Below the pieces are notes generated by a model. The model did not search any database and was not told the origin of the DNA. It saw nothing but the letters and a program-made list of their open reading frames with translations. Made by a program: the position numbers and the translations under genes. DNA of 60,484 nucleotides from Candidatus Giovannonibacteria bacterium. GTDB taxonomy: Bacteria > Patescibacteriota > Minisyncoccia > JACPKW01 > UBA11713. Each line of letters begins with the position of its first letter. Position 1 is the first letter of the stretch. The stretch is from contig JAHFOJ010000004.1 in the NCBI GenBank assembly GCA_023266875.1, positions 1-60,484 of the forward strand, given 5' to 3'. Of this stretch, positions 12,278-56,589 are shown one piece after another.

Positions 12278-13462
12278 ATGGAGTTTTATAAAAAAATCTT
12301 AAAGAATACAGAGGAATATAAAAAATATTTTGCGATCGGAGCGCTTTTACTCGTTTTCATCTTTTCTTTAAATCTTTTTCTCTCGACTAAATTAGGAAAT
12401 CCGATTGAATATGTTTCTTCAAAAGCCGCAAGTTCGACTTCGCAAAATGAAAAACAGGCCGCGAAAGTGAATCATTTAAAAACTCCGAAGCCGGTTCGGG
12501 GGATTTATATGACAAGCTGGGTTGCGGGCACCCCGAAATGGCGCGCGGAGCTGGTCGATTTTGTGAAAAAGACTGAGATTAATTCGATTGTGATCGACGT
12601 TAAAGATTACAGTGGGCGCGTGTCATTTGATACTGAAAACAAAAAAATAAAAGAAGTTGGATCGGAGGAAATACGAGTGCGCGATATGGCCGAGTTTATA
12701 GAAGAATTGCACGGAAACGGCATTTACGCGATCGCGCGGATTTCTGTGTTTCAAGATCCATTTTATTCGAAAGAATATCCCCAAAGCGCCGTAAAACGCA
12801 AAAACGGAGCAATTTGGAAAGACAGAAAAGGACTTTCATATGTTGATCCTTCCGCGCGTGATTTTTGGGATTATATCGCGGAAGTAGGACGCGCGAGCTC
12901 GAGAGCCGGGTTTGACGAACTTAATTTTGACTATATCCGTTTTCCTTCGGATGGCAATATGACAGACGTCGTTTTTCCTCTGTCAAATGAAAAATCAAAA
13001 GCAGATGTCCTTGATGAATTTTTCAACTATCTCGAGCGCGAGCTGAAAAGCGAGAAAGATAGCGTTCCGATTTCCGCTGATGTTTTTGGAATGACGACTA
13101 CAAATGCCGATGATCTTGGGATTGGACAGGTCTTGGAGCGTGTAGCGGAGTACTTTGATTACGTCTCTCCGATGGTTTATCCGTCGCATTATCCGCCGAC
13201 ATTTATCGGATTTAAAAATCCGGCCGACCACCCATACGAAGTTATCAATCACTCAATGTCGGCCGCGGTCTTGAGATTGTCTGCGCCTACATCCACGCCT
13301 GAAAAACTTCGTCCGTGGCTTCAGGATTTTGATTTAGGCGCGACTTACGATGCGACAATGATCCGGGAGGAGAAAAAGGCTGTTTATGATTCTGGACTTG
13401 ATTCATGGCTAATCTGGGATCCTTCGAATAAATATACGAGAGGCGCGTATGATTTGGAGTGA
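12278..13462 (+). CDS. Putative glycoside-hydrolase-like TIM-barrel protein (DUF4015/COG1306-like), membrane-anchored
   Basis: N-terminal TM helix. The RGIYMTSW.....EINSIVIDVKDYSGRVSF pattern resembles that family, recalled from memory. Confidence 0.55.
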   Translation: MEFYKKILKNTEEYKKYFAIGALLLVFIFSLNLFLSTKLGNPIEYVSSKAASSTSQNEKQAAKVNHLKTPKPVRGIYMTSWVAGTPKWRAELVDFVKKTEINSIVIDVKDYSGRVSFDTENKKIKEVGSEEIRVRDMAEFIEELHGNGIYAIARISVFQDPFYSKEYPQSAVKRKNGAIWKDRKGLSYVDPSARDFWDYIAEVGRASSRAGFDELNFDYIRFPSDGNMTDVVFPLSNEKSKADVLDEFFNYLERELKSEKDSVPISADVFGMTTTNADDLGIGQVLERVAEYFDYVSPMVYPSHYPPTFIGFKNPADHPYEVINHSMSAAVLRLSAPTSTPEKLRPWLQDFDLGATYDATMIREEKKAVYDSGLDSWLIWDPSNKYTRGAYDLE

Positions 13463-13477: not shown

Positions 13478-13527
13478 AACAGGATGTACAGGATGTATTC
13501 GTACGAATACATCCTGTACATCCTGTT
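13478..13527. terminator. Perfect 50-nt palindrome (23-bp stem, GTAC loop) between convergent genes; likely bidirectional terminator
   Basis: AACAGGATGTACAGGATGTATTC-GTAC-GAATACATCCTGTACATCCTGTT. Each arm holds a tandem CAGGATGTA repeat. T-runs flank both sides. Confidence 0.7.
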
Positions 13528-13532
13528 TTATT

Positions 13533-14453
13533 TCAAAATGCGCGGCATAGACCGATTATATGACCTTTATGTTTTATTACGAATTTATCCTCAAGCGCGA
13601 TTTTGTTTTCGAGTTCAAGCGATGCAATTCGCGGGGTCAATATTTTAAAATTTCTAATCCTTATTTTTAAGATTTTTGTTTGGTCCCGCCCGCTTTTGAG
13701 AACTAAGCTATTTCCCGCAGGATTTTTTAGCCACAAGCACTCTGCGTTTGCAAATTTCGATTGCGCCTGCAATTTGCCCAGAGAAAATGGCTTATTTTTT
13801 TCCGGGCCACTCGGCTTGAAGAAACTTAGTATTGTCTCGGCTAGAGTTTTCACACCTATTTTTTTGGCAAAGCTTAAAGGTTTTAAGAGATTTGTGCCGT
13901 TATAGGCGCTGACAGGAACAATTGGAAAATTTTTAAATCCGGCCTCTTCTGCGCTTTTCTCCACAGCTGCTTTTACGTCTATGAATTTTGGGAGAGAGTA
14001 TTTGATTTTATCGCATTTGTTTATTACAGCTATAATTTTTTCTACGCCCAAAAATGTTGCGATTTCCAAATGTTTTTTTGTCTGCGGCTTAATGCTCTCA
14101 TCTGCCGCTACAATTAAGATGCCATATTTCGCGGTTGATGCGCCTGAAAGCATATTTTTTATTAATGATTTATGCCCGGGGACGTCAATAAATTCGTAGA
14201 GAAATTTTCCAATTTTGATTTTTGCGCGGGTTGTATCGAGAGTCATCTTGCGCTCGCGCTCGTATTGAAAGCTATCCATAAGATGCGCCCACTCGAAACG
14301 TTTTCCAGATTTTTGGGCGATCGCCCGAAGTTCAGCAATTCGGCTTTCCGGAACTGATTTAGTTTCATACATTATCCGTCCCAAGAGCGTTGATTTGCCG
14401 TGGTCTTTCTCACCGAGAAGAACAATAGGGATTTCGCGCTCTCTAATCATCAC
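13533..14453 (-). CDS. cysN: Sulfate adenylyltransferase subunit 1-like GTPase (short CysN)
   Basis: EF-Tu-type GTPase motifs DHGKST, DVPGH and NKCD. ATGA overlap with the upstream cysD. At 306 aa it is shorter than canonical CysN. Confidence 0.75.
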   Translation of the reverse strand: MMIREREIPIVLLGEKDHGKSTLLGRIMYETKSVPESRIAELRAIAQKSGKRFEWAHLMDSFQYERERKMTLDTTRAKIKIGKFLYEFIDVPGHKSLIKNMLSGASTAKYGILIVAADESIKPQTKKHLEIATFLGVEKIIAVINKCDKIKYSLPKFIDVKAAVEKSAEEAGFKNFPIVPVSAYNGTNLLKPLSFAKKIGVKTLAETILSFFKPSGPEKNKPFSLGKLQAQSKFANAECLWLKNPAGNSLVLKSGRDQTKILKIRIRNFKILTPRIASLELENKIALEDKFVIKHKGHIIGLCRAF

Positions 14454-32767: not shown

Positions 32768-32792
32768 CACTTGGTAACCCGGTTACCAAGTG
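32768..32792. repeat. REP-like palindrome, copy 1
   Basis: CACTTGGTAACC C GGTTACCAAGTG: perfect 12-bp arms. It ends 17 nt before the transposase ATG. Confidence 0.85.
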
Positions 32793-32808: not shown

Positions 32809-33447
32809 ATGAGAAAGATCAGATTTGCTGATGGGGAATTTTATCATATTTATAATCGCGGCGTTGATAAGCGGTCTGTATTTTTGGACCAACAAGATTT
32901 TGAGCGTTTTTTACAGAGTATGCGCGAATTTAATAACCAAAAGCCTATAGGCAGTTTGTTCGAAAACTCTTTTCGCGACAAAACCAAACTTGGTAACCGG
33001 GTTACCAAGTTGGTAGATGTTGTGTGTTATTGTCTAAATCCTAATCACTTTCATTTAATACTTAAACAACGAATAGGAAACGGCCTAAGTGAATTTATGC
33101 ATCGGCTTGGCAGCGGCTATACTCGATATTTCAATATTAAAAACAAAAGAAATGGCGCGCTTTTCCAAGGAAAATTTAAAGCCATTCATGTTGATTCCAA
33201 TGAATACCTTTTGCATTTAAGTGCTTATGTAAATTTAAATAATCGCGTTCATCGCTTACAAGGCAAGGCAGCGAGGTCAAGTTGGGAAGAATATGTACAT
33301 GGCAAGAAAGCGATGTGCAGAAAAGAAATAATTATAAAACAATTTGATAAGCCTAGTGAATATAAACATTTCGCCGAAAGCGCACTACAAGATATTTTGG
33401 AGCGCAAGAAGCTGTATAAAGAAACGGAAAATATGCTGCTCGAATAG
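32809..33447 (+). CDS. REP-associated tyrosine transposase (IS200/IS605 TnpA-like, Y1 HUH)
   Basis: YHIYNRGV N-terminus, HUH motif in NPNHFHLIL and the catalytic-Tyr region SAYVNLN, all typical of RAYT / IS200-like TnpA. Confidence 0.8.
   Translation: MRKIRFADGEFYHIYNRGVDKRSVFLDQQDFERFLQSMREFNNQKPIGSLFENSFRDKTKLGNRVTKLVDVVCYCLNPNHFHLILKQRIGNGLSEFMHRLGSGYTRYFNIKNKRNGALFQGKFKAIHVDSNEYLLHLSAYVNLNNRVHRLQGKAARSSWEEYVHGKKAMCRKEIIIKQFDKPSEYKHFAESALQDILERKKLYKETENMLLE
32987..33011. repeat. REP-like palindrome, copy 2, inside the transposase CDS
   Basis: AACTTGGTAACC G GGTTACCAAGTT: perfect 12-bp arms. It encodes KLGNRVTKL. Confidence 0.85.
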
Positions 33448-33474
33448 CCACTTGGTAACCCGGTTATCAAGTGG
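33448..33474. repeat. REP-like palindrome, copy 3
   Basis: CCACTTGGTAACC C GGTTATCAAGTGG: 13-bp arms with one mismatch. It starts 1 nt after the transposase stop. Confidence 0.8.
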
Positions 33475-37611: not shown

Positions 37612-38372
37612 AAATTACAAGAAGAGAGCTTAAACCTTTCTTGGTCGGCAAGCGCATTTTGGGTTTAGATGGAAGAAAAATCTTAAGGCTTGAACGGAGA
37701 GGAAAGGCGATTTTGATTTATCTTTCCGGCGGAAAAATTCTCGCTTTTCATCAGAGAATGAGCGGGAAATTACTCGTTGTGGATCGTAAGTTTCAGGATA
37801 AACACATAAGATTTAGATATAAGTTATCATCCGGGAAAGATTTGATAATGCACGATGTCCGAAAATTTGGGATAAAGTGGTATGGCGCCCGGAATGAAGT
37901 ATTGGATGATAAATATTTTCTCAAACTTGGATATGATCCGCTCGAAATTAATTTTAGAAGATTTAAGGATCTTTTGGGAAAACACCAAGGCATGATAAAG
38001 CCAATGCTTTTGCGCCAAAATATCTTAGCGGGAATCGGAAATATAATTGCCGACGAGAGTTTATGGAAAGCGAGAATTAATCCAAAAAAAAGAATGGAAA
38101 ACTTCAGCGAAAAAGATTTTAGGGATTTATTTTTTGCAATTTTATTTATTTTAAGAAAGTCGATTCGCTTGGGAGGTTCGAGCATGCGCGATTGGCTGCG
38201 TCCTGACAGCTCAAAGGGCGGATATTTTAAGCGAAGGCTGGTTTATGGGAGAGCTGGGGAAAAATGCGGGAGATGCGGTAAAATGATTATAAGAACAAAA
38301 GTTGGCGGCAGGGGGACTTTTATCTGTGAATTATGCCAGCCAGACCTGCCTGCCGAAGGCAGGGGCTGGTAA
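37590..38372 (+). CDS. mutM: Formamidopyrimidine-DNA glycosylase
   Basis: (M)PELPEVE N-terminus (TTG start) and the C-terminal zinc finger CGRCG....CELCQ. Confidence 0.9.
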   Translation: MPELPEVEITRRELKPFLVGKRILGLDGRKILRLERRGKAILIYLSGGKILAFHQRMSGKLLVVDRKFQDKHIRFRYKLSSGKDLIMHDVRKFGIKWYGARNEVLDDKYFLKLGYDPLEINFRRFKDLLGKHQGMIKPMLLRQNILAGIGNIIADESLWKARINPKKRMENFSEKDFRDLFFAILFILRKSIRLGGSSMRDWLRPDSSKGGYFKRRLVYGRAGEKCGRCGKMIIRTKVGGRGTFICELCQPDLPAEGRGW

Positions 38373-38378
38373 ACCAAA

Positions 38379-39008
38379 ATGGTTGAAATAATCCCGGCGA
38401 TTAACGCCGAAAGTTTTGAAGAGGTTAAGGAAAAAACTATGCAGATTGAAGCGCATGCGAAGTGGGTCCATATTGATATTGCGGATGGAACTTTCACTAC
38501 CAATACGCTTTGGCATGAACCGCGCGACTTGGCTGGGCTCAAAACCAAACTTAAAATTGAGGTTCATTTAATGCTCGCGGACATGGACTTGCGCTGGCCT
38601 GATTGGATTTTACCGAATGTCTCAAGGGTAATTTTTCATTTGGAGGGCGCGCATGATCCGGCGTTTGTGATAAAAAAAATAAAAGAAGCAGGGAAAAAAG
38701 TTGGACTTGCAATTCGTCCTGAAACACCGTGGCAGCACGCGGAACCGTATCTAAAGCATGTTGATTTGATTCAAACGCTTGCTGTCGTTCCTGGTGAAGC
38801 AGGACAAGAATTTCGTCCCGAGATTTTAGATAAGATTTCTCACTTACGCGCGAGTCATTCAGAGGCTATAATTGAAGTAGATGGGGGGATTAATCCTAAA
38901 ACGGCGATACAGTGTATTTACGCAGGCGCGAACATCTTAGTTTCCGCGAGTTATATTTTTAATTCAGATAATATTAAAAAAGCAATTGAGGAGTTAACAA
39001 ATTTGTGA
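38379..39008 (+). CDS. rpe: Ribulose-phosphate 3-epimerase
   Basis: Rpe-like TIM barrel (HIDIADG.F..N, VDGGIN) within a pentose-phosphate gene context. Confidence 0.85.
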   Translation: MVEIIPAINAESFEEVKEKTMQIEAHAKWVHIDIADGTFTTNTLWHEPRDLAGLKTKLKIEVHLMLADMDLRWPDWILPNVSRVIFHLEGAHDPAFVIKKIKEAGKKVGLAIRPETPWQHAEPYLKHVDLIQTLAVVPGEAGQEFRPEILDKISHLRASHSEAIIEVDGGINPKTAIQCIYAGANILVSASYIFNSDNIKKAIEELTNL

Positions 39009-39865
39009 GCCATTTACACGAAGAAAAAATTAAATTTTTGGAAGAAAAAGCGAATGCGGTTCGGCAGTCGATTATTGAGATGCTGGTTGAGGCGGGGAGC
39101 GGGCATACGGCGGGGCCTTTGGGAATGGCGGATGTTTTTACAGCTTTTTATTTTCATATTTTAAACCATAATCCTAAAAATCCGGACTGGCCCGAGAGAG
39201 ATCGCCTTGTTTTATCAAACGGTCACATTTGCCCCGTGCAATATGCAACTCTTGCGCACGCGGAATATTTTCCAATCGAGGAATTAAAAACTTTGCGAAA
39301 ATTCGGAACGCGTTTGCAGGGGCATCCCCATCGCGGTTCATTGCCGGGGGTAGAAACAACCTCTGGCCCCTTAGGCTCCGGCCTTGGCCAAGCCGCTGGG
39401 ATGGCTTATGGCGCGCGCCTCGACAGCAAAAAATTCAGGACATATTGTTTTATGTCGGACGGCGAGCAGGACGCTGGTAATACATGGGAGGCGGTAATGT
39501 TTGCCGGAAAATATAAATTGAATAATTTGACCGGAATCATCGATCGCAACAATATTCAGATAGATGGGATGACTGAAGATATTATGCCACTTGAAAACCT
39601 CCGAGCAAAATACGAAGCGTTTAATTGGCATGTTTTGGAAATCGACGGGCATAATTTTGAAGAAATTGTAAATGCAGCGGAAGAAGCCAAGGCGATCTAT
39701 GAAAAACCAACTGTGATCATTGCCCATACTATTCCCGGAAAAGGTATTAAAGAGATAGAATTTAATTATCGGTGGCATGGTATGCCGCCAAACAAAGTCG
39801 AGGCTGTGAAGTTCTTGTCCGAGCTTCGCACGCTAGGCGGAAAAATTAAAAGCGAACACCAATAA
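39005..39865 (+). CDS. tkt: Transketolase, N-terminal (TPP-binding) subunit
   Basis: Split-type Tkt N-subunit: GHTAGPLGMAD, SNGH and SDGEQDAGNTWEA. Confidence 0.9.
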   Translation: MSHLHEEKIKFLEEKANAVRQSIIEMLVEAGSGHTAGPLGMADVFTAFYFHILNHNPKNPDWPERDRLVLSNGHICPVQYATLAHAEYFPIEELKTLRKFGTRLQGHPHRGSLPGVETTSGPLGSGLGQAAGMAYGARLDSKKFRTYCFMSDGEQDAGNTWEAVMFAGKYKLNNLTGIIDRNNIQIDGMTEDIMPLENLRAKYEAFNWHVLEIDGHNFEEIVNAAEEAKAIYEKPTVIIAHTIPGKGIKEIEFNYRWHGMPPNKVEAVKFLSELRTLGGKIKSEHQ

Positions 39866-39880
39866 TAGAAATTAGATGAT

Positions 39881-40093
39881 ATGAAAGGGAATGTTTTAAA
39901 TGATTCAATAAGAACGAAGTTATATTTCGTTGTTTTTTTTCTCTTCTCATCATATTTGGCGGTAATAATCTACACTGCATATTACGATGCATATGCTGAC
40001 GACTTTGTAACAATAGGAGGTATGAGAGTTTTCCGCCCTCACGCCGGACGCACGAATTCAAACTTAGCTTCGACAACGGATTTATATCAATAA
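39881..40093 (+). CDS. Hypothetical small membrane protein
   Basis: ORF with one TM helix, in an AT-rich insert between the tkt subunit genes. Confidence 0.35.
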   Translation: MKGNVLNDSIRTKLYFVVFFLFSSYLAVIIYTAYYDAYADDFVTIGGMRVFRPHAGRTNSNLASTTDLYQ

Positions 40094-40095
40094 TT

Positions 40096-40317
40096 ATGGG
40101 GCCAGATTCCCACGAAGGATTTTTAAATAAGAATTTTAGTAAGGCATCGGTCATTATCATTTTTATATCTCTGATAGTTTTTTTGATCACGGAATTCTAT
40201 ATCCTAAAAAAAGTTAATTATTATAGAAGCGTTTTACACACATATGAGACAAAAGATTATCTTGTTAATTTGCGGAATATTTTAAAAGAGGGTCATACCA
40301 AACAAAAGCAACAATGA
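40096..40317 (+). CDS. Hypothetical small membrane protein
   Basis: ORF with one TM helix, tightly packed against its neighbours. Confidence 0.35.
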   Translation: MGPDSHEGFLNKNFSKASVIIIFISLIVFLITEFYILKKVNYYRSVLHTYETKDYLVNLRNILKEGHTKQKQQ

Positions 40318-41072
40318 CGAAAGATGTCAAAAAAATTTTAATAGTATGGATTGCGGTCTTCATAGTTTTTTCGGCAATAGTTTTTCAATATGAAAAGCAA
40401 AATCCCAGCGAGAATAGGATAGTTTGCACCCAAGAAGCCAAACAATGTTCCGACGGTTCATATGTATCTCGCACCGGCCCGAATTGCGAATTTAGAGAGT
40501 GTCCCATTTTACCGAAGTCGGACTTCGGTATTTCGGATGTCTCAACATGGAAAACCTATCGCAACGAAAAATACGGGTTTGAAGTGAAGTATCCGTCTGA
40601 CTTGGTTGAATTGGTTGGCAAAGAAAGAGATAGATACGCTTATATTCCGATTTGTGATCTAAATGACGAGCTTTGTCTTTCGTATCCGTTTAAAAAATTT
40701 TTAGGAACAAATTTTGCCGGAGCCGCGTTCTCGGTAAAATCAGAAAGCATCCCTGAAGATGCTTGTAATAAATTAAGCGCGCAATGGCCTGAGAAAAAAG
40801 AAGGCATAGTTTCTGTAAACGGAATTAATTTTTCGTTTGGACGGTTCAGCGATGGCGCCACACAGCATTCTATTGCAGGCACTGAATACGCTACGTATAG
40901 AAATGGAAAGTGCCTCGAAATTTTTAATGCGGTCGAGAAAGTTTCTTATGATCCTGCAGGAGCAATTAATGAGAATAGTAAACAATTATATAGAGATTTT
41001 ACGCAAACCGAAGAGAATAATATTTTTGATGAGTTAAAAAATATCCTCTCTACTTTTAAATTTATAAAATAA
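40314..41072 (+). CDS. Hypothetical membrane-anchored protein with a Cys-rich linker
   Basis: TM helix, CTQEAKQCSDGSYVSRTGPNCEFRECP module and a beta-rich C-terminal domain. Confidence 0.6.
   Translation: MTKDVKKILIVWIAVFIVFSAIVFQYEKQNPSENRIVCTQEAKQCSDGSYVSRTGPNCEFRECPILPKSDFGISDVSTWKTYRNEKYGFEVKYPSDLVELVGKERDRYAYIPICDLNDELCLSYPFKKFLGTNFAGAAFSVKSESIPEDACNKLSAQWPEKKEGIVSVNGINFSFGRFSDGATQHSIAGTEYATYRNGKCLEIFNAVEKVSYDPAGAINENSKQLYRDFTQTEENNIFDELKNILSTFKFIK
40510..40530. repeat. GAAGTC-G-GACTTC palindrome family, copy 1 (inside a CDS)
   Basis: TACCGAAGTC G GACTTCGGTA: perfect 10-bp arms. It encodes LPKSDFG. Confidence 0.8.
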
Positions 41073-41073
41073 T

Positions 41074-42111
41074 ATGCCAATAAATCCGAAGCAAAAATTA
41101 GCAGAAAATATTCTAGATCTTGCGAAGGTGGAGCAAGCGCCAACGCGCAAGGGTTACGGGGAGGGGTTGCTTGAAGCTGGGGAGAAGAATGACAAAGTTG
41201 TGGCGCTTTGCGCCGATCTTACCGAATCCACCCAGATGCATCTTTTTGCGAAAAAATTTCCGGAGCGGTTTATTGAAATGGGCGTAGCCGAGCAAAATAT
41301 GGCTACGGTAGCTTCAGGGCTTGCGAATTATGGAAAAATTCCCTTTATCTCGAGTTATGCGATGTTTAGTCCTGGAAGAAATTGGGAGCAGATTAGGACG
41401 ACGATTTGTTATAACAATGTTCCCGTAAAAATTGCCGGATCTCATTCCGGAGTTTCCGTTGGACCGGACGGAGCAACGCATCAGGCGATCGAGGATATTG
41501 CTTTAATGCGCCCAATTCCGAATATGACAGTTATTAATCCGTGCGACGCAATTGAAGCAAAAAAAGCGACAATGTCGGCTGCGGGAATTAATGGGCCGGT
41601 TTATTTGAGATTTCACCGCGAAAAAACCCCTGTGTTTACGAGTCCAGATACGCCTTTTGAAATTGGTAGAGCAGAAGTTATGTTTGATTCTAATATCGAA
41701 GTCGGACTTCAATATCGAAGTCGGACTTCAATTAGGCTTGATGTTGCTATAATCGCGTGCGGTCCTTTGGTTCATAATGCAATTCTTGCCGCAGCAGAAT
41801 TGGAAAAAGAAGGAATGGGAATTGTTGTTGTAAACAATCACACAATCAAACCGATGGATGAGGCGACAATTATTCAAGCCGCGAAAGATGCCGGCGCGGT
41901 CGTTACCGTTGAAGAGCACCAAGTTCAGGGAGGAATGGGCTCGGCCGTCGCGGAGATTATCGCAAAAAATTACCCGGTTCCGATTGAGTTTATCGGAGTC
42001 CAAAATTGTTTCGGCGAATCCGGCGCGCCTGGCGAGCTTATTGAGCACTTCGGCATGAGTGTAAAGTGCATAAAGGATGCGGCGATGAAAGCTATATCTA
42101 GAAAGACTTAA
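41074..42111 (+). CDS. tkt: Transketolase, C-terminal (pyrimidine-binding) subunit
   Basis: Split-type Tkt C-subunit: FIEMGVAEQNM, GPDGATHQAIEDIA and TIKPMDE. Confidence 0.9.
   Translation: MPINPKQKLAENILDLAKVEQAPTRKGYGEGLLEAGEKNDKVVALCADLTESTQMHLFAKKFPERFIEMGVAEQNMATVASGLANYGKIPFISSYAMFSPGRNWEQIRTTICYNNVPVKIAGSHSGVSVGPDGATHQAIEDIALMRPIPNMTVINPCDAIEAKKATMSAAGINGPVYLRFHREKTPVFTSPDTPFEIGRAEVMFDSNIEVGLQYRSRTSIRLDVAIIACGPLVHNAILAAAELEKEGMGIVVVNNHTIKPMDEATIIQAAKDAGAVVTVEEHQVQGGMGSAVAEIIAKNYPVPIEFIGVQNCFGESGAPGELIEHFGMSVKCIKDAAMKAISRKT
41692..41729. repeat. GAAGTC-G-GACTTC palindrome family, tandem 19-nt x2 copy inside tkt C-subunit
   Basis: AATATCGAAGTCGGACTTC appears twice in tandem. It is translated as IEVGLQYRSRTS, so the two copies are read in different frames. 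Confidence 0.85.
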
Positions 42112-49635: not shown

Positions 49636-49726
49636 CCCCGTTAGAGCCGGAGTAGCTCAGCGGCAGAGCAACGGTTTTGTAAACCGTAGGTCGCGAGTTC
49701 GAATCTCGCCTCCGGCTCTAACGGGG
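49636..49726. repeat. Inverted-repeat pair, copy 3 (CCCCGTTAGA ... TCTAACGGGG) bracketing tRNA-Thr
   Basis: The arms abut the tRNA, so the acceptor stem extends into a perfect 17-bp helix (49636-49652 / 49710-49726). Confidence 0.8.
49646..49717 (+). tRNA. tRNA-Thr (anticodon TGT)
   Basis: Manual cloverleaf: GCCGGAG/CTCCGGC acceptor, GCTC/GAGC D-stem, ACGGT/ACCGT anticodon stem, loop TTTGTAA, variable AGGTC, GCGAG-TTCGAAT-CTCGC T-arm and discriminator T. No CCA is encoded. Confidence 0.9.
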
Positions 49727-51060: not shown

Positions 51061-52842
51061 TTATTTTAATCCTATCTGATATTCATAGAGACGGCGGTAG
51101 ATGCCGTCTGGAATTTTTACGAGTTCGTCATGTCTGCCTGTTTCCTGTATTTCGCCGTCTTTAAGGACAAGAATATTATTCGCCTTTCGCACGGTTGAGA
51201 GACGGTGTGCGATAATGAATGTTGTGCGCCCTGTCATTAATTTTTCCAGCGCTTCCGTGACAAGCTTTTCGGAAATTGCGTCCAAAGCCGAGGTAGGTTC
51301 GTCTAAAATTAGAATTCTTGGGTTCTTCAAAATCGCGCGCGCTATGGCGAGCCTCTGTTTTTGCCCCACTGAAAGCTTAATGCCGCGCTCGCCCACGACC
51401 TGATCATATTTTTTCTCAAATTTTTCGATGAATTCATTGGCGTAAGCTTCGCTTGCCGCTTTTTTGACGGCTCCATTTGTGGCGCTGAAGTTCCCGTAGC
51501 GGATATTATTTTTGATCGTGTCATGGAATAATATTACTTCCTGCGGCACTACTGCGATTTGACGACGCAGCGTTTTTAGGTCAATGTTTTTCAATTCAAC
51601 GCCGTCAATTTTTATTTTACCTTTTGTCGGTGAAAAATAGCGCGAAATTAAATCGACTAAAGTTGATTTTCCTACACCAGATTCTCCGACAAGCGCAATT
51701 ATTTCTCCTGTATTCACATCAAAATTTATATCTTTCAATATCGAATGATGGGTTTTTTTGTATGCGAAGGAAACGTTTCTGAAGGAAATTTCGCCTTTAA
51801 TATCCAATCGTATTTTTCCAGTAACCGAGTAATCTTCCGGAGGTATTCGCAATATTTTCTCGGCGCGTTCGATTGTAATCAAACCATTTTGGATTGTGCG
51901 CCAGTTTTGAGCGAGGATGACAAAGGGGCCGAAAAGTAGCGCGGCATATCCGTTAAAGGCAACAAGTTCGCCTATAGTCATTTGCCCGCTTCGTATCAAG
52001 AAAATTGAAACTATAAATATCGTAAGCTGGGTTAAGCTCACAATTACCTTCTGAGAAAAATTGATTGATTGAGATAGGGTGATGTATTTCGTCCAGAAAC
52101 GCGCCGCTTTTTCATAATAATTTTTGTAAAGCTTTTTCTTTTCGTGTTCTTCGGCGGTTGCTTGTTTGACAGCTTGGACGTTTAGTATCGCATCATGGGC
52201 GTCGCCCCAAGCTTTTGTATAGGCTTTATTCATTGAGGAGCTTAAATCAGCAAGACGCGGCGCAATTCGTGTGAGTGCTATCGCGTAAAGTATAACTGCG
52301 CCGAGCAATATAAAAGCGAGGAGAGGCCGGATTAGAAACGTAAAAAAGAGCGCGGCTAAAATACTTAAAAATTGCGGGGCGAGACGAATTATTACTTCTG
52401 ACACAATGCTTGATATCATTCCTGACGCGCGAGCAATGCGGTTTGTTATTTCGCCCGATTTTTGGGATTTATGAACAGATATCGGAAATTCCATAATCTT
52501 TGAAAACCCGCTTATTATATACTCCGCTTCGAGTTCTCCGTTCAAAGTTTCGTTTATGGCATTTCCGCGCCAAGCGACAATGTCGGTGATAATCTTTATT
52601 AAGAACCAAAAAACCGGAATAACTAAAAATAAAGGGATTTTGTAGCTAAAAAATGAGAGCGAAATTTCTTGGTGGATGCTATCGATGATTTTTCCAGAGA
52701 GATAGGGAACCGACGCGTTCCCGAGCGCTTCAATTATGCTTAATGAAATCAAAATTAGCACCTCTTTTTTATGAGGTCTTAAAAAATCAAATATTACCCG
52801 AAGTCCGGCTTCGAATCTTTTTCGTGTAATGCGCCTTGCCAT
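51061..52842 (-). CDS. ABC exporter, fused permease/ATPase (MsbA-like)
   Basis: Six-TM N-terminal domain, Walker A GESGVGKST, signature LSVGQKQR and Walker B ILILDEPTSALD. Confidence 0.92.
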   Translation of the reverse strand: MARRITRKRFEAGLRVIFDFLRPHKKEVLILISLSIIEALGNASVPYLSGKIIDSIHQEISLSFFSYKIPLFLVIPVFWFLIKIITDIVAWRGNAINETLNGELEAEYIISGFSKIMEFPISVHKSQKSGEITNRIARASGMISSIVSEVIIRLAPQFLSILAALFFTFLIRPLLAFILLGAVILYAIALTRIAPRLADLSSSMNKAYTKAWGDAHDAILNVQAVKQATAEEHEKKKLYKNYYEKAARFWTKYITLSQSINFSQKVIVSLTQLTIFIVSIFLIRSGQMTIGELVAFNGYAALLFGPFVILAQNWRTIQNGLITIERAEKILRIPPEDYSVTGKIRLDIKGEISFRNVSFAYKKTHHSILKDINFDVNTGEIIALVGESGVGKSTLVDLISRYFSPTKGKIKIDGVELKNIDLKTLRRQIAVVPQEVILFHDTIKNNIRYGNFSATNGAVKKAASEAYANEFIEKFEKKYDQVVGERGIKLSVGQKQRLAIARAILKNPRILILDEPTSALDAISEKLVTEALEKLMTGRTTFIIAHRLSTVRKANNILVLKDGEIQETGRHDELVKIPDGIYRRLYEYQIGLK

Positions 52843-52910: not shown

Positions 52911-53225
52911 ATGTGTCCGATTATTGAAGTCGGACTTCAATATATGCATAAACGTTTTGATTACGGATTAGTCTTGGTAGAGCGCTTAAAAAAATCTCCT
53001 GGCGAGTTTTTAGATGTGCGAGGAATTGCGAGAGAATATAAAATTCCGAGGGCTTATCTGGAAAAAATCGCGCAGGAATTTAAGCGCGCGGGGTGGATAG
53101 AATCTCGCAGAGGTGCTGGAGGTGGCTACAGAATTTTGCGAGATGTGCAAATGTCGGAACTGATTAAGTTTTTTGAGCGCCCTTATGAAATTTGTCCGAT
53201 TACCAGGATTTTAAAAGTGAATTGA
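52911..53225 (+). CDS. Rrf2-family transcriptional regulator (short, no Cys cluster seen)
   Basis: wHTH region IAREYKIPRAYLEKIAQEFKRAGWIESRRGAGGGYRI typical of Rrf2/IscR. The first 11 codons (MCPIIEVGLQY) are contributed by a palindromic repeat. The canonical-looking start is ATG 52944. Confidence 0.8.
   Translation: MCPIIEVGLQYMHKRFDYGLVLVERLKKSPGEFLDVRGIAREYKIPRAYLEKIAQEFKRAGWIESRRGAGGGYRILRDVQMSELIKFFERPYEICPITRILKVN
52923..52941. repeat. GAAGTC-G-GACTTC palindrome family, copy in the 5' end of the Rrf2 ORF
   Basis: ATTGAAGTC G GACTTCAAT: perfect 9-bp arms. TATATG occurs on both sides (52906-52911 and 52941-52946). Confidence 0.8.
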
Positions 53226-53297
53226 TGAAAAGAATTTGCCCGCCCACCAACTTTTGTCTGCATCTGTTTGTGGCGGATTTATAAAAATAAAATATTT

Positions 53298-54602
53298 ATG
53301 TTAGAAGTTGAAAATAAAAATAATAAAGTTAGTGAGCGGGTTTACCTAGATCATGCGGCGACCACGCCTGTCGATCCGCGTGTCATGAAAACAATGGAGC
53401 CTTTTTTGTCAGAGAATTTTGGCAATGCAGGAGGGCTTTATGAGGAAGGGAGGCGCGCAAAAGAATCGTTGCAAAATTCGCGAGAAATAATTGCGAAATT
53501 GATTGGCGCAAAGCCAGATGAGATAATTTTTACCTCTGGAGGAACGGAAGCCGATAATCTTGCGATTTTCGGCGTCGCTCGCGCCGCGGGTCTTAAAGGT
53601 CACATCATTACAACTGCGTTTGAACATCATGCTGTGCTTTTGCCAGCTCAAGAACTTTCACGCGATGGATTTGACGTTTCATATTTGCCGGTCGGCGAGG
53701 AAGGAATTATTAATCCGGAAGATGTTGGCCGTGCGTTACGGTCGGATACGGTTCTGGTTTCAATTATGCATGCGAATAATGAAATTGGGACAATTCAGCC
53801 GATTGCCCAGATTTCAAAAATTATCAAAAAACATCGCGAGGAAAATAAAACCAGTTATCCTTATTTCCATGCTGACGCCTGCCAGTCGGCTGGTTATCTG
53901 AATTTAAACGTTAATTCTATGTCTGGCGGATTAGGTGTTGATTTGATGAGTGTAAACGGCGGCAAAATTTACGGCCCAAAGGGCGTCGGATTTTTATACA
54001 AGCGTTCGGGCACAAGGATGCGCCCGATTATCTTCGGCGGGGGGCAGGAAGGTCGAATGCGCTCCGGCACCGAAGCCACGCCTTTAATTGCCGGCCTTGC
54101 GCGCGCTTTTGAAATTGCGCAATCCGAGCGCGAAGCTGAATCAAAACGGCTCATTGAGATTCGCGATTATTTTATATCGCGCTTGCTTAAAGAAATTCCA
54201 AAAACAGTTTTGAATGGCCACCAGACAAATCGCCTGCCGAATAATGTAAATGTTTCTATCTTAGATATAGAAGGAGAAGCGCTTGTACTCTATCTTGATG
54301 CCGAAGGAATTTCTTTTTCTACGGGCTCTGCTTGTACTTCAGAGTCGCTTGATCCTTCGCACGTTATTTTGGCCTTGGGAAAGCCCTATGAATTTGCGCA
54401 TTCATCCATGCGTTTTACATTAGGGCGATCAACTACGAAAGCGGATATTGATTATGTAATGGAGAAATTGCCGAAAACAGTCGAGTGGCTCCGCAAAGTA
54501 TCGCCGATCAGTGTAGATATGGATGCAAAATCAATGTCGCATCCCGAAGCTTTTGCTGGGGAGGGACTACGAGTTAAAGCTAAATCTAAAAGCTATAAAT
54601 GA
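53298..54602 (+). CDS. nifS: Cysteine desulfurase (NifS/IscS type)
   Basis: YLDHAATTP N-terminus, class V aminotransferase fold and the active-site loop STGSACTS. Confidence 0.92.
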   Translation: MLEVENKNNKVSERVYLDHAATTPVDPRVMKTMEPFLSENFGNAGGLYEEGRRAKESLQNSREIIAKLIGAKPDEIIFTSGGTEADNLAIFGVARAAGLKGHIITTAFEHHAVLLPAQELSRDGFDVSYLPVGEEGIINPEDVGRALRSDTVLVSIMHANNEIGTIQPIAQISKIIKKHREENKTSYPYFHADACQSAGYLNLNVNSMSGGLGVDLMSVNGGKIYGPKGVGFLYKRSGTRMRPIIFGGGQEGRMRSGTEATPLIAGLARAFEIAQSEREAESKRLIEIRDYFISRLLKEIPKTVLNGHQTNRLPNNVNVSILDIEGEALVLYLDAEGISFSTGSACTSESLDPSHVILALGKPYEFAHSSMRFTLGRSTTKADIDYVMEKLPKTVEWLRKVSPISVDMDAKSMSHPEAFAGEGLRVKAKSKSYK

Positions 54603-54790
54603 AAACATTAAATTTTATTTTTAATCAATTGTCGCTTGTGGTCGTGATTGCGGCAATTTTTATTATTCATTTTCGTTTTTACGAATTCGATTATCGTTTC
54701 ATTTTAATTTTAGTTGTGTCGCTTGCATTGATTAAAATCATGTCAGAATTTATTAATAAAAAAGCATATGGAAGAAACAAAAGCGCCTGA
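54599..54790 (+). CDS. Hypothetical small membrane protein
   Basis: 63-aa ORF with two hydrophobic segments, wedged between nifS and nifU. Confidence 0.35.
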   Translation: MKTLNFIFNQLSLVVVIAAIFIIHFRFYEFDYRFILILVVSLALIKIMSEFINKKAYGRNKSA

Positions 54791-55427
54791 GGTTATTAAT
54801 CAGTTCACGGGTGAAAAGTGGTATTACACAGATATAGTGAAAGATCATTTTTTTCATCCGCGAAATTTATTGTGGGAAAAGCCGGCACGAGATGATGAAT
54901 TTGACGCGCATGGGATGGTGGGGAGTCCGGCTTGCGGGGATATGATGGAGATGTGGATGAAAATTAATCCGGAAAATGAGAGAATAAAAGAGTTGAAGTG
55001 GAAAACATTCGGGTGCGCCTCCGCGATTGCGGCAACCTCGATGTATTCTGAGATGTTGACGGAAAATGAAGGGATGACGATGGCAGATGCGCTTAAAGTG
55101 AAGCCGCAGGATGTGATGCGCCGCCTTGGTGGGCTTCCAAACCGCAAAATCCATTGTTCTGTCTTGGCGGATAAAGCATTTCAAAAAACAGCGAATGATT
55201 ATTTTAGGAAAACCGGGCAAAATCAGAGGATTGTGATTGAAGGCGCGCGCGTGGTCGATCCGCGTCTCAATATTACCGATAAAGATATTGAGGAGGCGGT
55301 GCTTGAAGGCGCACAAACGCTTGAAGAAGTTCAGAAAAAATTAAAAGTTGGCGTCGGAGCTTCTGAAGAAGTGAAGACGGATGTCGAATCTTTGATAAGA
55401 TTCTATGCAGAAAAATATTATGGATAA
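54768..55427 (+). CDS. nifU: NifU/IscU-type Fe-S cluster scaffold protein
   Basis: IscU domain with the three conserved Cys (PACGD, FGCASAIA, HCSVLA) plus a C-terminal extension. Confidence 0.88.
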   Translation: MEETKAPEVINQFTGEKWYYTDIVKDHFFHPRNLLWEKPARDDEFDAHGMVGSPACGDMMEMWMKINPENERIKELKWKTFGCASAIAATSMYSEMLTENEGMTMADALKVKPQDVMRRLGGLPNRKIHCSVLADKAFQKTANDYFRKTGQNQRIVIEGARVVDPRLNITDKDIEEAVLEGAQTLEEVQKKLKVGVGASEEVKTDVESLIRFYAEKYYG

Positions 55428-55439
55428 ACTGGAGAAAGT

Positions 55440-55682
55440 ATGGCGGATTTGACCTCGACAAAAATTGCGAAAATTATGGTAGATCGGGAATTATGCATCG
55501 GCGCGGCTTCTTGTGTGGCAATCGCCCCGGGAGTTTTCGCTTTAGATGACGAAAACAAAGCGTATGTGCTTGACGCCGCAGGAGCGGATGACGAAACCAT
55601 TTTACTTGCTGCAGAATCTTGCCCCACTCGCGCGATTTTTTTATACGACAAAGACGGGAACCAGATTTACCCGCCCACCTAA
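55440..55682 (+). CDS. Small ferredoxin (single 4Fe-4S type)
   Basis: CIGAASC ... CP pattern of single-cluster ferredoxins. Confidence 0.75.
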   Translation: MADLTSTKIAKIMVDRELCIGAASCVAIAPGVFALDDENKAYVLDAAGADDETILLAAESCPTRAIFLYDKDGNQIYPPT

Positions 55683-55708
55683 TTTTGAAATTAGGTGGGC
55701 GGGTTTAT
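55670..55708 (+). terminator. Rho-independent terminator
   Basis: Perfect 15-bp stem CCCGCCCACCTAATT / AATTAGGTGGGCGGG with a TTGA loop, followed by TTTAT. It overlaps the ferredoxin stop. Confidence 0.8.
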
Positions 55709-55748
55709 CCTTAATTCGTATTAATTATTAATTAATTATTTAAAATTT

Positions 55749-56351
55749 ATGCCATACGAACCAAAAAATTTTGACCATCTTCTCGGCACTCCGGGATTTT
55801 CTGATCAGTTATTAAAAAATCATTTCGCGCTTTATCTGGGTTATGTGACGAATTTCAATAAACTAAACGATACTTTGGTGATGCTTGAACGAGAGGGCAA
55901 GTTTGGCGCGCCGGAATATGCCGAGCTTAACCGGCGTTTTGGCTGGGAGTTTAACGGGATGAGATTGCATGAGCTATATTTTGGCAATATGTCGAAAAGC
56001 GGCTCCGCGCCCGATCCAAAATCAGGATTTGGAGAAGCGATAACAAAAGAATGGGGCTCGCCTGAGCTCTGGAAAAAGGATTTCTTGGCAATGGGAATGA
56101 TGCGCGGAATCGGCTGGGTGGTTCTATATCACGACGAAACTACCGGGCATTTATTTAATGTATGGATAAATGAGCATGACATTGGGCACTTTGCCGGCTG
56201 CCGCCCGATTTTAGTGATGGATGTTTTTGAGCATGCATACATGCTTGATTACGGCATTAAGCGCGCAGATTATCTGGAAGCATTTTGGAAGTCAATTGAT
56301 TGGAATGAAACTGATAAACGTTTTCAACTTGGAAGTCCGGCTTCCAAGTGA
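55749..56351 (+). CDS. sod: Fe/Mn superoxide dismutase family protein
   Basis: Metal ligands are in the expected context (NH.., RLHELYF, DVFEHAYMLDY). The N-terminal helix deviates from the canonical HHxKHH. Confidence 0.78.
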   Translation: MPYEPKNFDHLLGTPGFSDQLLKNHFALYLGYVTNFNKLNDTLVMLEREGKFGAPEYAELNRRFGWEFNGMRLHELYFGNMSKSGSAPDPKSGFGEAITKEWGSPELWKKDFLAMGMMRGIGWVVLYHDETTGHLFNVWINEHDIGHFAGCRPILVMDVFEHAYMLDYGIKRADYLEAFWKSIDWNETDKRFQLGSPASK

Positions 56352-56361
56352 ATATATTCTT

Positions 56362-56589
56362 ATGATCGAAGAAAAAATAAAAAATATATTAGAGAAAGAA
56401 GTTAAACCAATGCTTGCCATGCACTTGGGTTCGCTTGATTTTGTGAGTTTTAGTGATGGCGTGCTGAGTGTGCGTCTTTTGGGCACTTGTAAGGGATGCC
56501 CTCTTTCTAATTTGACGCTGAAAGCTGGAATAGAAGAACTGTTGAGGTCTAAATTGTCGGAAGTAAAAAGCGTTCGCGCTCTAGAATAA
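56362..56589 (+). CDS. NifU C-terminal-domain (Nfu-like) protein
   Basis: 75 aa with the CKGCPLS (CxxC) motif and V.P.L..HgG...fv.f.dgvl.v.l.G.C.gC pattern. Confidence 0.8.
   Translation: MIEEKIKNILEKEVKPMLAMHLGSLDFVSFSDGVLSVRLLGTCKGCPLSNLTLKAGIEELLRSKLSEVKSVRALE

Follow-up and report, generated by a model that had tools for sequence, protein, structure and literature searches.

A translated dimer of a REP-like hairpin in the split-transketolase gene tktC of Candidatus Giovannonibacteria and its probable link to RAYT-like transposases

The gene for the C-terminal chain of a split transketolase (tktC) in a Candidatus Giovannonibacteria bacterium (Patescibacteria) contains a short palindromic sequence that is present in two tandem copies and is translated. 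The gene lies in a 60,484-nt stretch of contig JAHFOJ010000004.1 (assembly GCA_023266875.1), hereinafter called the window; the same stretch encodes an IS200-like transposase resembling the REP-associated tyrosine transposases (RAYTs; REP, repetitive extragenic palindrome). As noted in the original prediction, positions 41692-41729 consist of two exact head-to-tail copies of the 19-nt unit AATATCGAAGTCGGACTTC, and Tandem Repeats Finder delineates the repeat as 41692-41732, with a period of 19, 2.2 copies and 100% matches. The identity of the host open reading frame (ORF) is supported by the Transket_pyr and Transketolase_C domains of its homologues and by its best NCBIfam matches, which are transketolase models. 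The peptide across the repeat reads ..DSNIEVGLQYRSRTSIRLDV.. (also given as ..FDSNIEVGLQYRSRTSIRLDV..), and the two copies are indeed read in different frames: I-E-V-G-L-Q comes from copy 1 and Y-R-S-R-T-S-I from copy 2, whose phase is shifted by one base.

The direct dimer is still predicted to fold into a long hairpin that contains a single G.G mismatch. For the complete insert (41689..41736), the predicted RNA fold has an energy of -22.1 kcal/mol (z = -4.8), which is not equalled by any shuffled sequence, and the predicted DNA fold has an energy of -10.8 kcal/mol (z = -4.3). Both units carry ATC, which is a synonymous variant (Ile) in copy 1 and is essential in copy 2 (TAT CGA as opposed to TAT TGA). 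The one C.A mismatch per hairpin can be viewed as the price of translation because ATC spares copy 2 an in-frame TGA. Since ribosomes must unwind the long hairpin, the insert may have a side effect on translation.

The closest relatives of this TktC protein come from Candidatus Giovannonibacteria and are 80-82% identical at best, with none above 82% in the protein search. In an alignment of 120 homologues and the query, almost all length variation is confined to the insert site: the turn is short (..FDSGGKLDV.., for instance) in 48 of the 121 close homologues, and the others contain 6-20 extra residues. The DNA between the flanking anchors spans 33-42 nt in insert-free orthologues, including most of the more distant ones from Parcubacteria, versus 78 nt in the window, and the net insertion relative to insert-free orthologues such as L002 (L-numbers denote loci from other genomes) amounts to 36 nt, or 12 residues. 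The solved C chain of a split transketolase (PDB 6YAJ) aligns with residues 23 to 344, and the only gap, of 15 residues, coincides with the insert (..VLKEG---KDVTIV..). The AlphaFold2 model of TktC is confident overall (mean predicted local distance difference test score, pLDDT, 88; predicted template modelling score 0.89) and has a coil at the insert, linking strands 201-205 and 224-228, where pLDDT falls under 50 over residues 210-218; the alignment columns show that the protein retains the invariant residues of the family. Judging from the alignment and the model, the insert sits in a β-turn between the Pyr and C-terminal domains and is translated as a loop of 12-15 residues that is predicted to be disordered and is most likely a passenger without a role in catalysis, one that would be functionally neutral. 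Orthologue alignment and structure prediction, two of the checks proposed together with the original prediction, both came out in its favour: the alignment delimits an insert at a turn that these 48 homologues, most distant orthologues and 6YAJ keep short, and the model places it in a low-confidence coil of an otherwise confident fold. The extra segment is not common to repeat-free orthologues, given that insert-free orthologues exist, and the predicted preservation of the frame holds; the predicted size of about 16 residues gives way to 12 relative to L002 and 15 relative to 6YAJ. With regard to gene arrangement, tktN (39005..39865) and tktC (41074..) of the window are not adjacent: they are 1.2 kb apart (region 39005-41072), and the gap contains small ORFs and a gene for a hypothetical protein of 252 aa that has a Cys-rich motif near its N-terminus. 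The two genes abut in L278 and are separated by a single small ORF in L277 and L279.

The same turn accommodates different palindromes in different genomes. Besides a single unit of the window's own family in L001 (CTGATCGAAGTCCGACTTCAATCAG), the tkt site contains GCGGTTTCACCGCC-AAGT-GGCGGTGAAACCGC in L007, GGAGGCTCGGCCTCC-CATG-GGAGGCCGAGCCTCC in L011, GGAGGTTSAACCTCC two times over in L017 and L020, AGAAGCCTTGCTTCT..AGAAGCAAGGCTTCT in L026, a palindrome of the CCTGCCTGCCGG type in L027, GGCCAAGTCSGACTTGGCC two times over in L054 and two direct copies of AAAAGGTTTAACCTTTT in L076. Even among the proteins that are 80-82% identical to that of the window, the GAAGTC core is found in five architectures: a single unit (L001), a perfect unit followed by a diverged second hairpin (L277/P0007), inverted doublets with 15-bp arms (L278/P0002) or 20-bp arms (L279/P0047), and the direct dimer of the window. 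Inverted doublets are present at the tkt site of L007, L011, L020 and L026 as well. On a neighbour-joining tree of 119 sequences built with the insert masked, presence or absence of the insert requires at least 26 changes (mean of 37 for shuffled states), and a four-state coding of the insert requires 48. The commonest filler among the homologues, of the GSPS..SGR type, derives from the sequence CCTTCGAC-N2-3-GCTCAGG, which is not palindromic and is itself dispersed, with 9 copies outside tkt in the examined loci; at least two unrelated repeat families thus use the tkt site, because this non-palindromic type fills the same position as the palindromes. On the strength of these comparisons, the inter-domain turn of TktC is a recurrent landing or retention site for different palindromes across lineages.

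Several observations on this and similar sites can be added. The CCTTCGAC-N2-3-GCTCAGG repeat, read as PS..SG[RQ] or as FDKLR-like peptides, is located at the tkt site at L010 2451, L014 1199 and L034 4272; further sites are L045 194, L046 10966, L077 5411, L163 143 and L167 97, as well as L191 (two copies), L210 2697, L216 5942 and L217. A third short palindrome family, CCTGCCTGCCGGCAGGCAGG, is present in the window at 38345-38363 and recurs across different Parcubacteria genomes (L007 6120; L010 10244; L013 14509 and 18842; L027 1541 and the tkt hot spot of L027). A second orthologous hot spot is apparent in a protein of ~575-600 aa, where a GAAGTC-type unit occupies the same position in four different genomes (L163 2889, L179 2372, L181 6456, L232 2870) and is read as A-I-E-V-G-L-[QR]-Y-I-A-I-T-D.

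The tkt unit belongs to a dispersed family. Allowing up to 3 mismatches, the 19-mer yields 7 matches in the window versus 0.00 expected, and the 13-nt core, with up to 1 mismatch, yields 10 strand-matches in the 60-kb window versus 0.01 expected; GAAGYCSGRCTTC is found at six distinct sites (40514, 41698, 41717, 52800, 52926 and 56332). The unit follows the consensus (N4)ATYGAAGTCSGACTTCRAT(N4'), with lengths of 19-23 nt (19-29 nt in the wider palindrome family), stems of 10-15 bp and loops of 1-3 nt. A scan of all species genomes with ATYGAAGTCSGACTTCAAT identified more than 116 stretches among the matches listed, nearly all in metagenome-assembled genomes (MAGs) of Patescibacteria, with multiple copies in several genomes; hence the motif is not unique to a few loci, and a count of the kind suggested in the original prediction finds it dispersed in the window and in many Patescibacteria genomes, in both coding and intergenic positions. 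The window as a whole is rich in hairpins, with 56 perfect stems of at least 7 bp versus ~22 in shuffles. An exact 11-mer search for the tkt palindrome in the orthologues' own flanks returned mostly nothing, these flanks of 10-20 kb being too short for low-copy repeats, and an Rfam scan of the window detected a tRNA alone (49646-49717, 74 bits), with no RNA family over any palindrome. Exact unit copies are also found in long ORFs of MAGs labelled as Chloroflexi/Dehalococcoidia and Thermoplasmata (L180 2928, L190 3814, L260 3538; L177 7748, L258 1484), one Chloroflexi/Dehalococcoidia-labelled case being a 566-aa protein with SFPIEVGLQSDIQAG; such copies could reflect mis-binning, horizontal transfer or a wider host range.

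The 212-aa product of the transposase gene of the window contains the HUH motif NHFHLIL (residues 79-85) and the tyrosine motif AYVNLN (residues 139-144), and matches Pfam PF01797 (Y1_Tnp) with E = 9.9e-8 and 32.6 bits, above the gathering score of 23. The best and only NCBIfam match, to NF047646 'REP-associated tyrosine transposase' (E = 1.6e-7, 31.3 bits), is under the cutoff of 80, and a sequence search of the PDB with this protein gave no meaningful match. A sister palindrome, ACTTGGTAACCSGGTTACCAAGT, is present at 32768, 32985 and 33448, that is, on both sides of the transposase ORF and inside it. In nearly every one of the 80 homologues from species genomes that are 51-72% identical to this protein, the flanking arrangement is as in the window: a palindrome of the pattern (C)ACTTRG-N5-loop-N5'-CYAAGT(G) is located ~40 nt upstream and another directly after the stop codon, and the ORFs usually hold their own variant of the palindrome in-frame at ~+175 and ~+450 nt. 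The 5-nt inner arms vary from gene to gene and co-vary, and in 1.67 Mb the strict pattern was counted 209 times, as against 0 in shuffled sequence. The internal site of the window gene corresponds to a variable linker with [QK]LGxxxSKL in most homologues, each with a variant of its own, and the internal palindrome is absent in some (L083, L086, L101, L102, L104, L110, L111). Paralogous transposases within a genome are 59-64% identical (MFIM01, LCKG01), and orthologous pairs between genomes are 70-79% identical and have the palindrome variant in common, a pattern that shows, at the level of sequence, apparent co-inheritance of the enzyme and the hairpin variant.

Several connections join the tkt unit to such transposases. 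The tkt unit of L011 is the core of the palindrome that flanks the RAYT gene in L113 (TTGGAGGCTCGGCCTCCAA), and the same identity of cores holds for the tkt units of L017/L020 with L107/L160, L026 with L119, and L007 with L130/L160. The hybrid copy at 56327 unites the RAYT-flanking and tkt palindrome types in a single sequence. A RAYT-like gene, 34-51% identical to that of the window, is present in 16 of the loci matched by ATYGAAGTCSGACTTCAAT, with the element on both sides of it and inside it; the GAAGTC type lies around and inside RAYT-like genes in L208 (3363 / 3164 / 2653), L234 (1097 / 887 / 357), L193, L213, L194 and L246. The shared cores, the hybrid copy, the family scan and the 16 loci with a bracketed RAYT-like gene identify the GAAGTC-type palindrome as the putative cognate hairpin of a RAYT-like subfamily.

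A large fraction of the copies reside in genes. Among the matches listed, 51 of 140 copies (~36%) are situated 45 nt or more inside ORFs that have at least 150 codons, 4 are at ORF 3' ends, and the other 85 are intergenic or in short ORFs; in the window, the in-gene copies are those in tktC, in ORF 40314, in the RAYT ORF and at the 3' end of the superoxide dismutase gene. Three frames are in use, giving the peptides IEV[GR]LQ, L[LS]KSDF[ND] and YRS[PR]TSI, and a stop (AT|TGA) arises in just one frame per strand of the perfect unit. Among the distinct in-ORF core copies from all examined loci, the frames are used in proportions of 32 : 28 : 9, and ATT, which yields TGA, is found in 0 of the 9 rare-frame copies versus ~75% of the arms outside ORFs. 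This result is partly by construction, a stop being impossible in an in-ORF copy, and still marks the permissive variant and the under-represented frame. Judging by these counts, the in-ORF copies have passed a translatability filter, and palindromic repeats of the nominally extragenic type appear often to reside in genes in this lineage of Patescibacteria, the transposase gene included. A translated doublet is also present outside tkt: in L270, two GAAGTC-type units 28 nt apart (4733 and 4761) are read in two frames within a 225-aa ORF (LSKSDFN..IEVGLRF).

Table 1. Palindromic elements and associated genes of the window
Feature	Position	Strand	Details
Host gene TktC, C-terminal chain of split transketolase, 345 aa	41074..42111	+	Otherwise intact
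Direct dimer of REP-like palindrome AATATCGAAGTCGGACTTC	41692..41732	+	Tandem Repeats Finder; each unit ATATCGAAGTC-G-GACTTCAATAT, with one C.A mismatch
Complete insert hairpin with complementary flanks TCTAAT...ATTAGG, 48 nt	41689..41736	+	RNA and DNA folds
Extra loop N207-R221 (NIEVGLQYRSRTSIR)	41692..41736	+	Residue-to-nucleotide mapping
Second in-ORF copy TACCGAAGTCGGACTTCGGTA, 10-bp stem	40510..40530	+	Read L-P-K-S-D-F-G in hypothetical ORF 40314..41072
Variant copy CGAAGTCCGGCTTCG (minus strand GAAGCCGGACTTC)	52799..52813	-	Followed by a T-rich run
Perfect copy TATTGAAGTCGGACTTCAATA	52922..52942	+	Ends 1 nt short of the ATG (52944) that probably starts the gene for an Rrf2-family regulator
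Hybrid copy ACTTGGAAGTCCGGCTTCCAAGT	56327..56349	+	Outer arms of RAYT-flanking type, inner arms of tkt type
IS200-like Y1 (RAYT-like) transposase gene, 212 aa	32809..33447	+	Pfam, NCBIfam and motifs
Upstream palindrome CACTTGGTAACC-C-GGTTACCAAGTG	32768..32792	+	16 nt ahead of the RAYT start codon
RAYT-internal palindrome	32985..33013	+	In-frame K-L-G-N-R-V-T-K-L, residues 60-68
Downstream palindrome CCACTTGGTAACCCGGTTATCAAGTGG	33448..33474	+	Begins directly past the RAYT stop codon

The remaining copies in the window occupy linkers, gene ends and gene boundaries (Table 1). The linker that holds the 40510 copy varies, homologues of ORF 40314 having nothing, a degenerate copy or other palindromes there. 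The 52799 copy falls in the first codons of the longest reading of an ABC-transporter ORF (51061..52842, minus strand). The 52922 copy would be read I-I-E-V-G-L-Q-Y if the Rrf2 ORF started at 52911, and the Pfam match to Rrf2 begins at residue 13. The 56327 copy forms the final 8 codons (QLGSPASK) of the Fe/Mn superoxide dismutase ORF (55749..56351) and extends into its stop codon, beyond the Pfam domain, since Sod_Fe_C ends at residue 191 of 200. The region 52911-56589 holds an Fe-S cluster gene group, whose products are the Rrf2 regulator, a cysteine desulfurase-like aminotransferase of class V, a NifU_N scaffold, the Fe/Mn superoxide dismutase and Nfu, a NifU-like protein; the copies at 52799, 52922 and 56327 are positioned at gene boundaries of this group and might affect its expression. 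Two further palindromes of the window can be mentioned. A perfect 50-nt palindrome at 13478-13527, with 25-bp arms and no loop (AACAGGATGTACAGGATGTATTCG|CGAATAC...) and a direct repeat of ACAGGATGTA in each arm, lies between the convergent ORFs 12278..13462 (+) and 13533..14453 (-) and may be a bidirectional terminator or something else. A palindrome with a 17-bp stem at 55669-55704 (ACCCGCCCACCTAATTT-TG-AAATTAGGTGGGCGGGT), in the gap between the NifU_N and superoxide dismutase genes, is unrelated in sequence to the REP-like families.

The nearest known kind of element is the REP/REPIN-RAYT system (REPIN, REP doublet forming a hairpin), reportedly described in Proteobacteria by Nunvar in 2010 and Ton-Hoang in 2012. 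The two have several features in common: short palindromes (20-30 nt), with the same one on both sides of a Y1 HUH transposase gene; doublets in inverted orientation, which fold as a single long hairpin; a number of divergent transposase paralogues in each genome, without near-identical duplicates and each paired with a cognate variant; and apparent vertical co-inheritance of enzyme and hairpin. RAYT/REP systems are defined by a Y1-type gene that has its own palindrome on either side (Bertels 2017, PMC5581495; Bertels & Rainey 2011, PMC3116915), and the foot of the REP hairpin carries a conserved GTAG or CGTC tetranucleotide (PMC3733652; PMC6006769). This tag was not detected here above chance, with 3-7 flanks observed versus about 10-15 expected: for the ACTTRG type, GTAG was found in 3 and CGTC in 4 of 420 flanks, and for the GAAGTC type, in 4 and 7 of 276 flanks, respectively, in all cases at or below chance. 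There are other differences as well. About one third of the copies are inside ORFs and translated, at odds with the extragenic character of REPs; in-frame copies occupy two conserved positions in the transposase ORF; copy numbers are modest, tens per genome rather than hundreds; the window protein is under the NCBIfam RAYT cutoff; and the host phylum is Patescibacteria.

Rickettsia palindromic elements (RPEs), said to have been described by Ogata et al. in 2000 and 2002, are Rickettsia-specific selfish palindromes of ~100-150 bp that are inserted in-frame in genes of a small, gene-dense genome. The likeness to RPEs that was put forward in the original prediction extends to behaviour, a selfish palindrome being tolerated in-frame as a translated extra surface segment, and fails for the identity of the element, which is smaller, RAYT-associated and therefore REP/REPIN-like. 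Compared with the description of RPEs, the units here are 19-23 nt long and the insert 48 nt, about one fifth of the RPE size; they are often doubled and Y1-linked, belong to another phylum, and refill one orthologous site with different variants. We know of no transposase associated with RPEs. The Y1_Tnp (PF01797) gene of ~0.65 kb with hairpins immediately upstream and downstream also resembles IS200/IS605 elements, and by analogy the chemistry would be expected to act on single-stranded hairpins; unlike in these elements, both flanks here are the same near-perfect palindrome rather than distinct left and right ends, and the hairpin is dispersed alone. No near-identical copies of a whole element were found in the two assemblies examined, the paralogues being 59-64% identical. 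The palindromic coding repeats of Methanocaldococcus jannaschii, reportedly described by Suyama, Lathe and Bork in 2005 as in-frame inserts in proteins, are, by description, likewise short, coding-capable palindromes; by description, too, they are set apart by a different sequence and another domain of life, and to our knowledge no association with a transposase has been reported for them. A miniature inverted-repeat transposable element (50-500 bp, with terminal inverted repeats, an internal segment and a target-site duplication) was considered and rejected, the element here being a bare 19-29-nt hairpin without a consistent direct repeat at its ends. Altogether, the element is closest to REP/REPIN-RAYT, behaves like an RPE without being one, and is not a typical IS200. 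The wider picture is of a RAYT-like/hairpin system spread across Patescibacteria, with hairpins that are often located in genes.

We propose, with a probability of roughly three in four, that the tkt feature is a head-to-tail dimer of a REP-like hairpin that was probably moved by a RAYT-like transposase and was kept where it is stop-free, in-frame and tolerated in a loop. A RAYT-like enzyme would cut and join the hairpin as single-stranded DNA, seeding copies elsewhere, and new copies would land preferentially near or beside existing ones, giving rise to doublets. Given the very high coding density, many insertions would strike genes, and, in line with the observed pattern, the survivors would be those whose length is a multiple of three, that are stop-free in the frame used and that reside in tolerant loops or linkers. 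The β-turn of TktC is such a site and has been repeatedly filled, emptied and refilled, with single units, REPIN-like inverted doublets and direct doublets. The window dimer itself would have arisen by a 19-nt slippage duplication of one unit and a 1-nt deletion six bases downstream, for a net gain of 18 nt; comparison of L001 (..TCAATCAGCACTCGAT) with the window (..TCAATTAGG-CTTGAT) is compatible with these two events and suggests that the deletion restored the frame, and the left-arm change of ATT to ATC keeps the frame of copy 2 free of a TGA stop.

Several points weigh against this proposal. Dispersed copies are few: in 1.15 Mb of tkt loci, away from RAYT genes, the strict ACTTRG pattern was counted just 8 times. 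The RAYT gene cognate to the GAAGTC type was not found in the window, whose own RAYT gene has a palindrome of the ACTTGG type. For L001, L005 and L007, there is no match between the tkt insert and the palindromes around those RAYT copies of the same assembly that were retrieved, a subset of the copies per assembly. No clean pair of empty and filled sites was found, the comparison of L001 with L002 resembling the replacement of 9 nt by 27 nt. Movement of the hairpin by a RAYT-like protein is something we infer from sequence patterns, and all sequence data come from MAGs. Finally, recurrence at one tkt codon could reflect a selected role of the hairpin or the loop at this position.

Such a role would make the hairpin or the encoded loop a selected element of tktC, acting in ribosome pausing between domains, in control of mRNA decay or as a protein loop, and maintained through compensatory changes. 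The recurrence of a hairpin at one codon across many lineages, frequently with a constant geometry (14-15-nt arms, 4-nt apex), the very stable fold of the insert and the compensatory nature of the outer-stem differences from L001 are all in keeping with this explanation. We nevertheless consider it unlikely because the hairpin is missing in ~40% of close orthologues, in most distant ones and in the solved enzyme, the non-palindromic CCTTCGAC..GCTCAGG occupies the same site in many genomes, the architecture differs among proteins that are 80% identical, the loop is predicted to be disordered, and the same units are dispersed elsewhere, including on both sides of transposase genes. Dispersal also speaks against the somewhat less probable notion that the palindromes were born locally, by template switching or slippage at a fragile site without any mobile element, their similarity being coincidental or convergent. 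The window dimer is an exact 19-nt tandem duplication of the kind typical of slippage, and the outer arms differ between copies yet remain complementary; slippage, however, accounts for the dimerisation and not for the origin of the unit, of which the matches listed include identical 19-23-nt versions from many genomes, at more than 116 loci unrelated to one another, with three units per RAYT gene in a fixed arrangement and no chance matches in shuffled sequence.

The palindrome might also be an operator of a dimeric DNA-binding protein, such as the Rrf2 regulator encoded next to the 52922 copy, with the tkt copies being incidental. Three of the six window copies do lie in the region of Rrf2, cysteine desulfurase, NifU, superoxide dismutase and Nfu, where one copy abuts the Rrf2 start codon and another is ~15 nt ahead of the Nfu start codon, but across genomes the family is found most consistently in and around Y1 transposase genes and within unrelated ORFs, and the in-frame insertions and the tkt hot spot are left unexplained, which makes this an improbable account. 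An assembly or sequencing artefact appears hardly credible: palindromes and short tandem repeats are prone to misassembly, but the ORF is open and in-frame, and inserts of the same family are found in independent assemblies from different projects. An origin of the C(C/G)G-centred palindromes as restriction sites or uptake sequences is less favoured, the cores being without a common recognition site and the transposase link explaining more.

A broader possibility, which we advance tentatively and consider doubtful, is that a vertically inherited, Patescibacteria-wide RAYT-like/hairpin system has adapted to life in genes, its hairpins being open in five of six reading frames, colonising loops and linkers of housekeeping proteins and two fixed in-frame positions in the transposase ORF, and supplying loop-length variation in minimal proteomes. 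Through the hairpins inside the RAYT genes, the enzyme may regulate its own gene or target it. The prevailing view places REP/RAYT systems outside genes in proteobacterial genomes and treats in-frame selfish palindromes as a Rickettsia curiosity; the literature searches found no RAYT/REP system or in-frame palindrome described in the Candidate Phyla Radiation (CPR) or Parcubacteria, which is no proof of novelty. CPR genomes have almost no intergenic space, the host lineage consisting of tiny groundwater bacteria, and it is in this radiation that the two phenomena meet. The proposed system would account for odd low-complexity inserts (IEVGLQ, LKSDFN, YRSRTSI, QLGxxxSKL) and for length variation of CPR proteins, would aid annotators in recognising such inserts, and would provide natural insertion-tolerance maps of conserved enzymes. 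A Y1 transposase this compact, together with a cognate hairpin of 23 nt, would also be a tractable model for single-strand hairpin transposition and for enzyme-hairpin co-evolution, one that would extend to the unexplained hairpins within the transposase gene.

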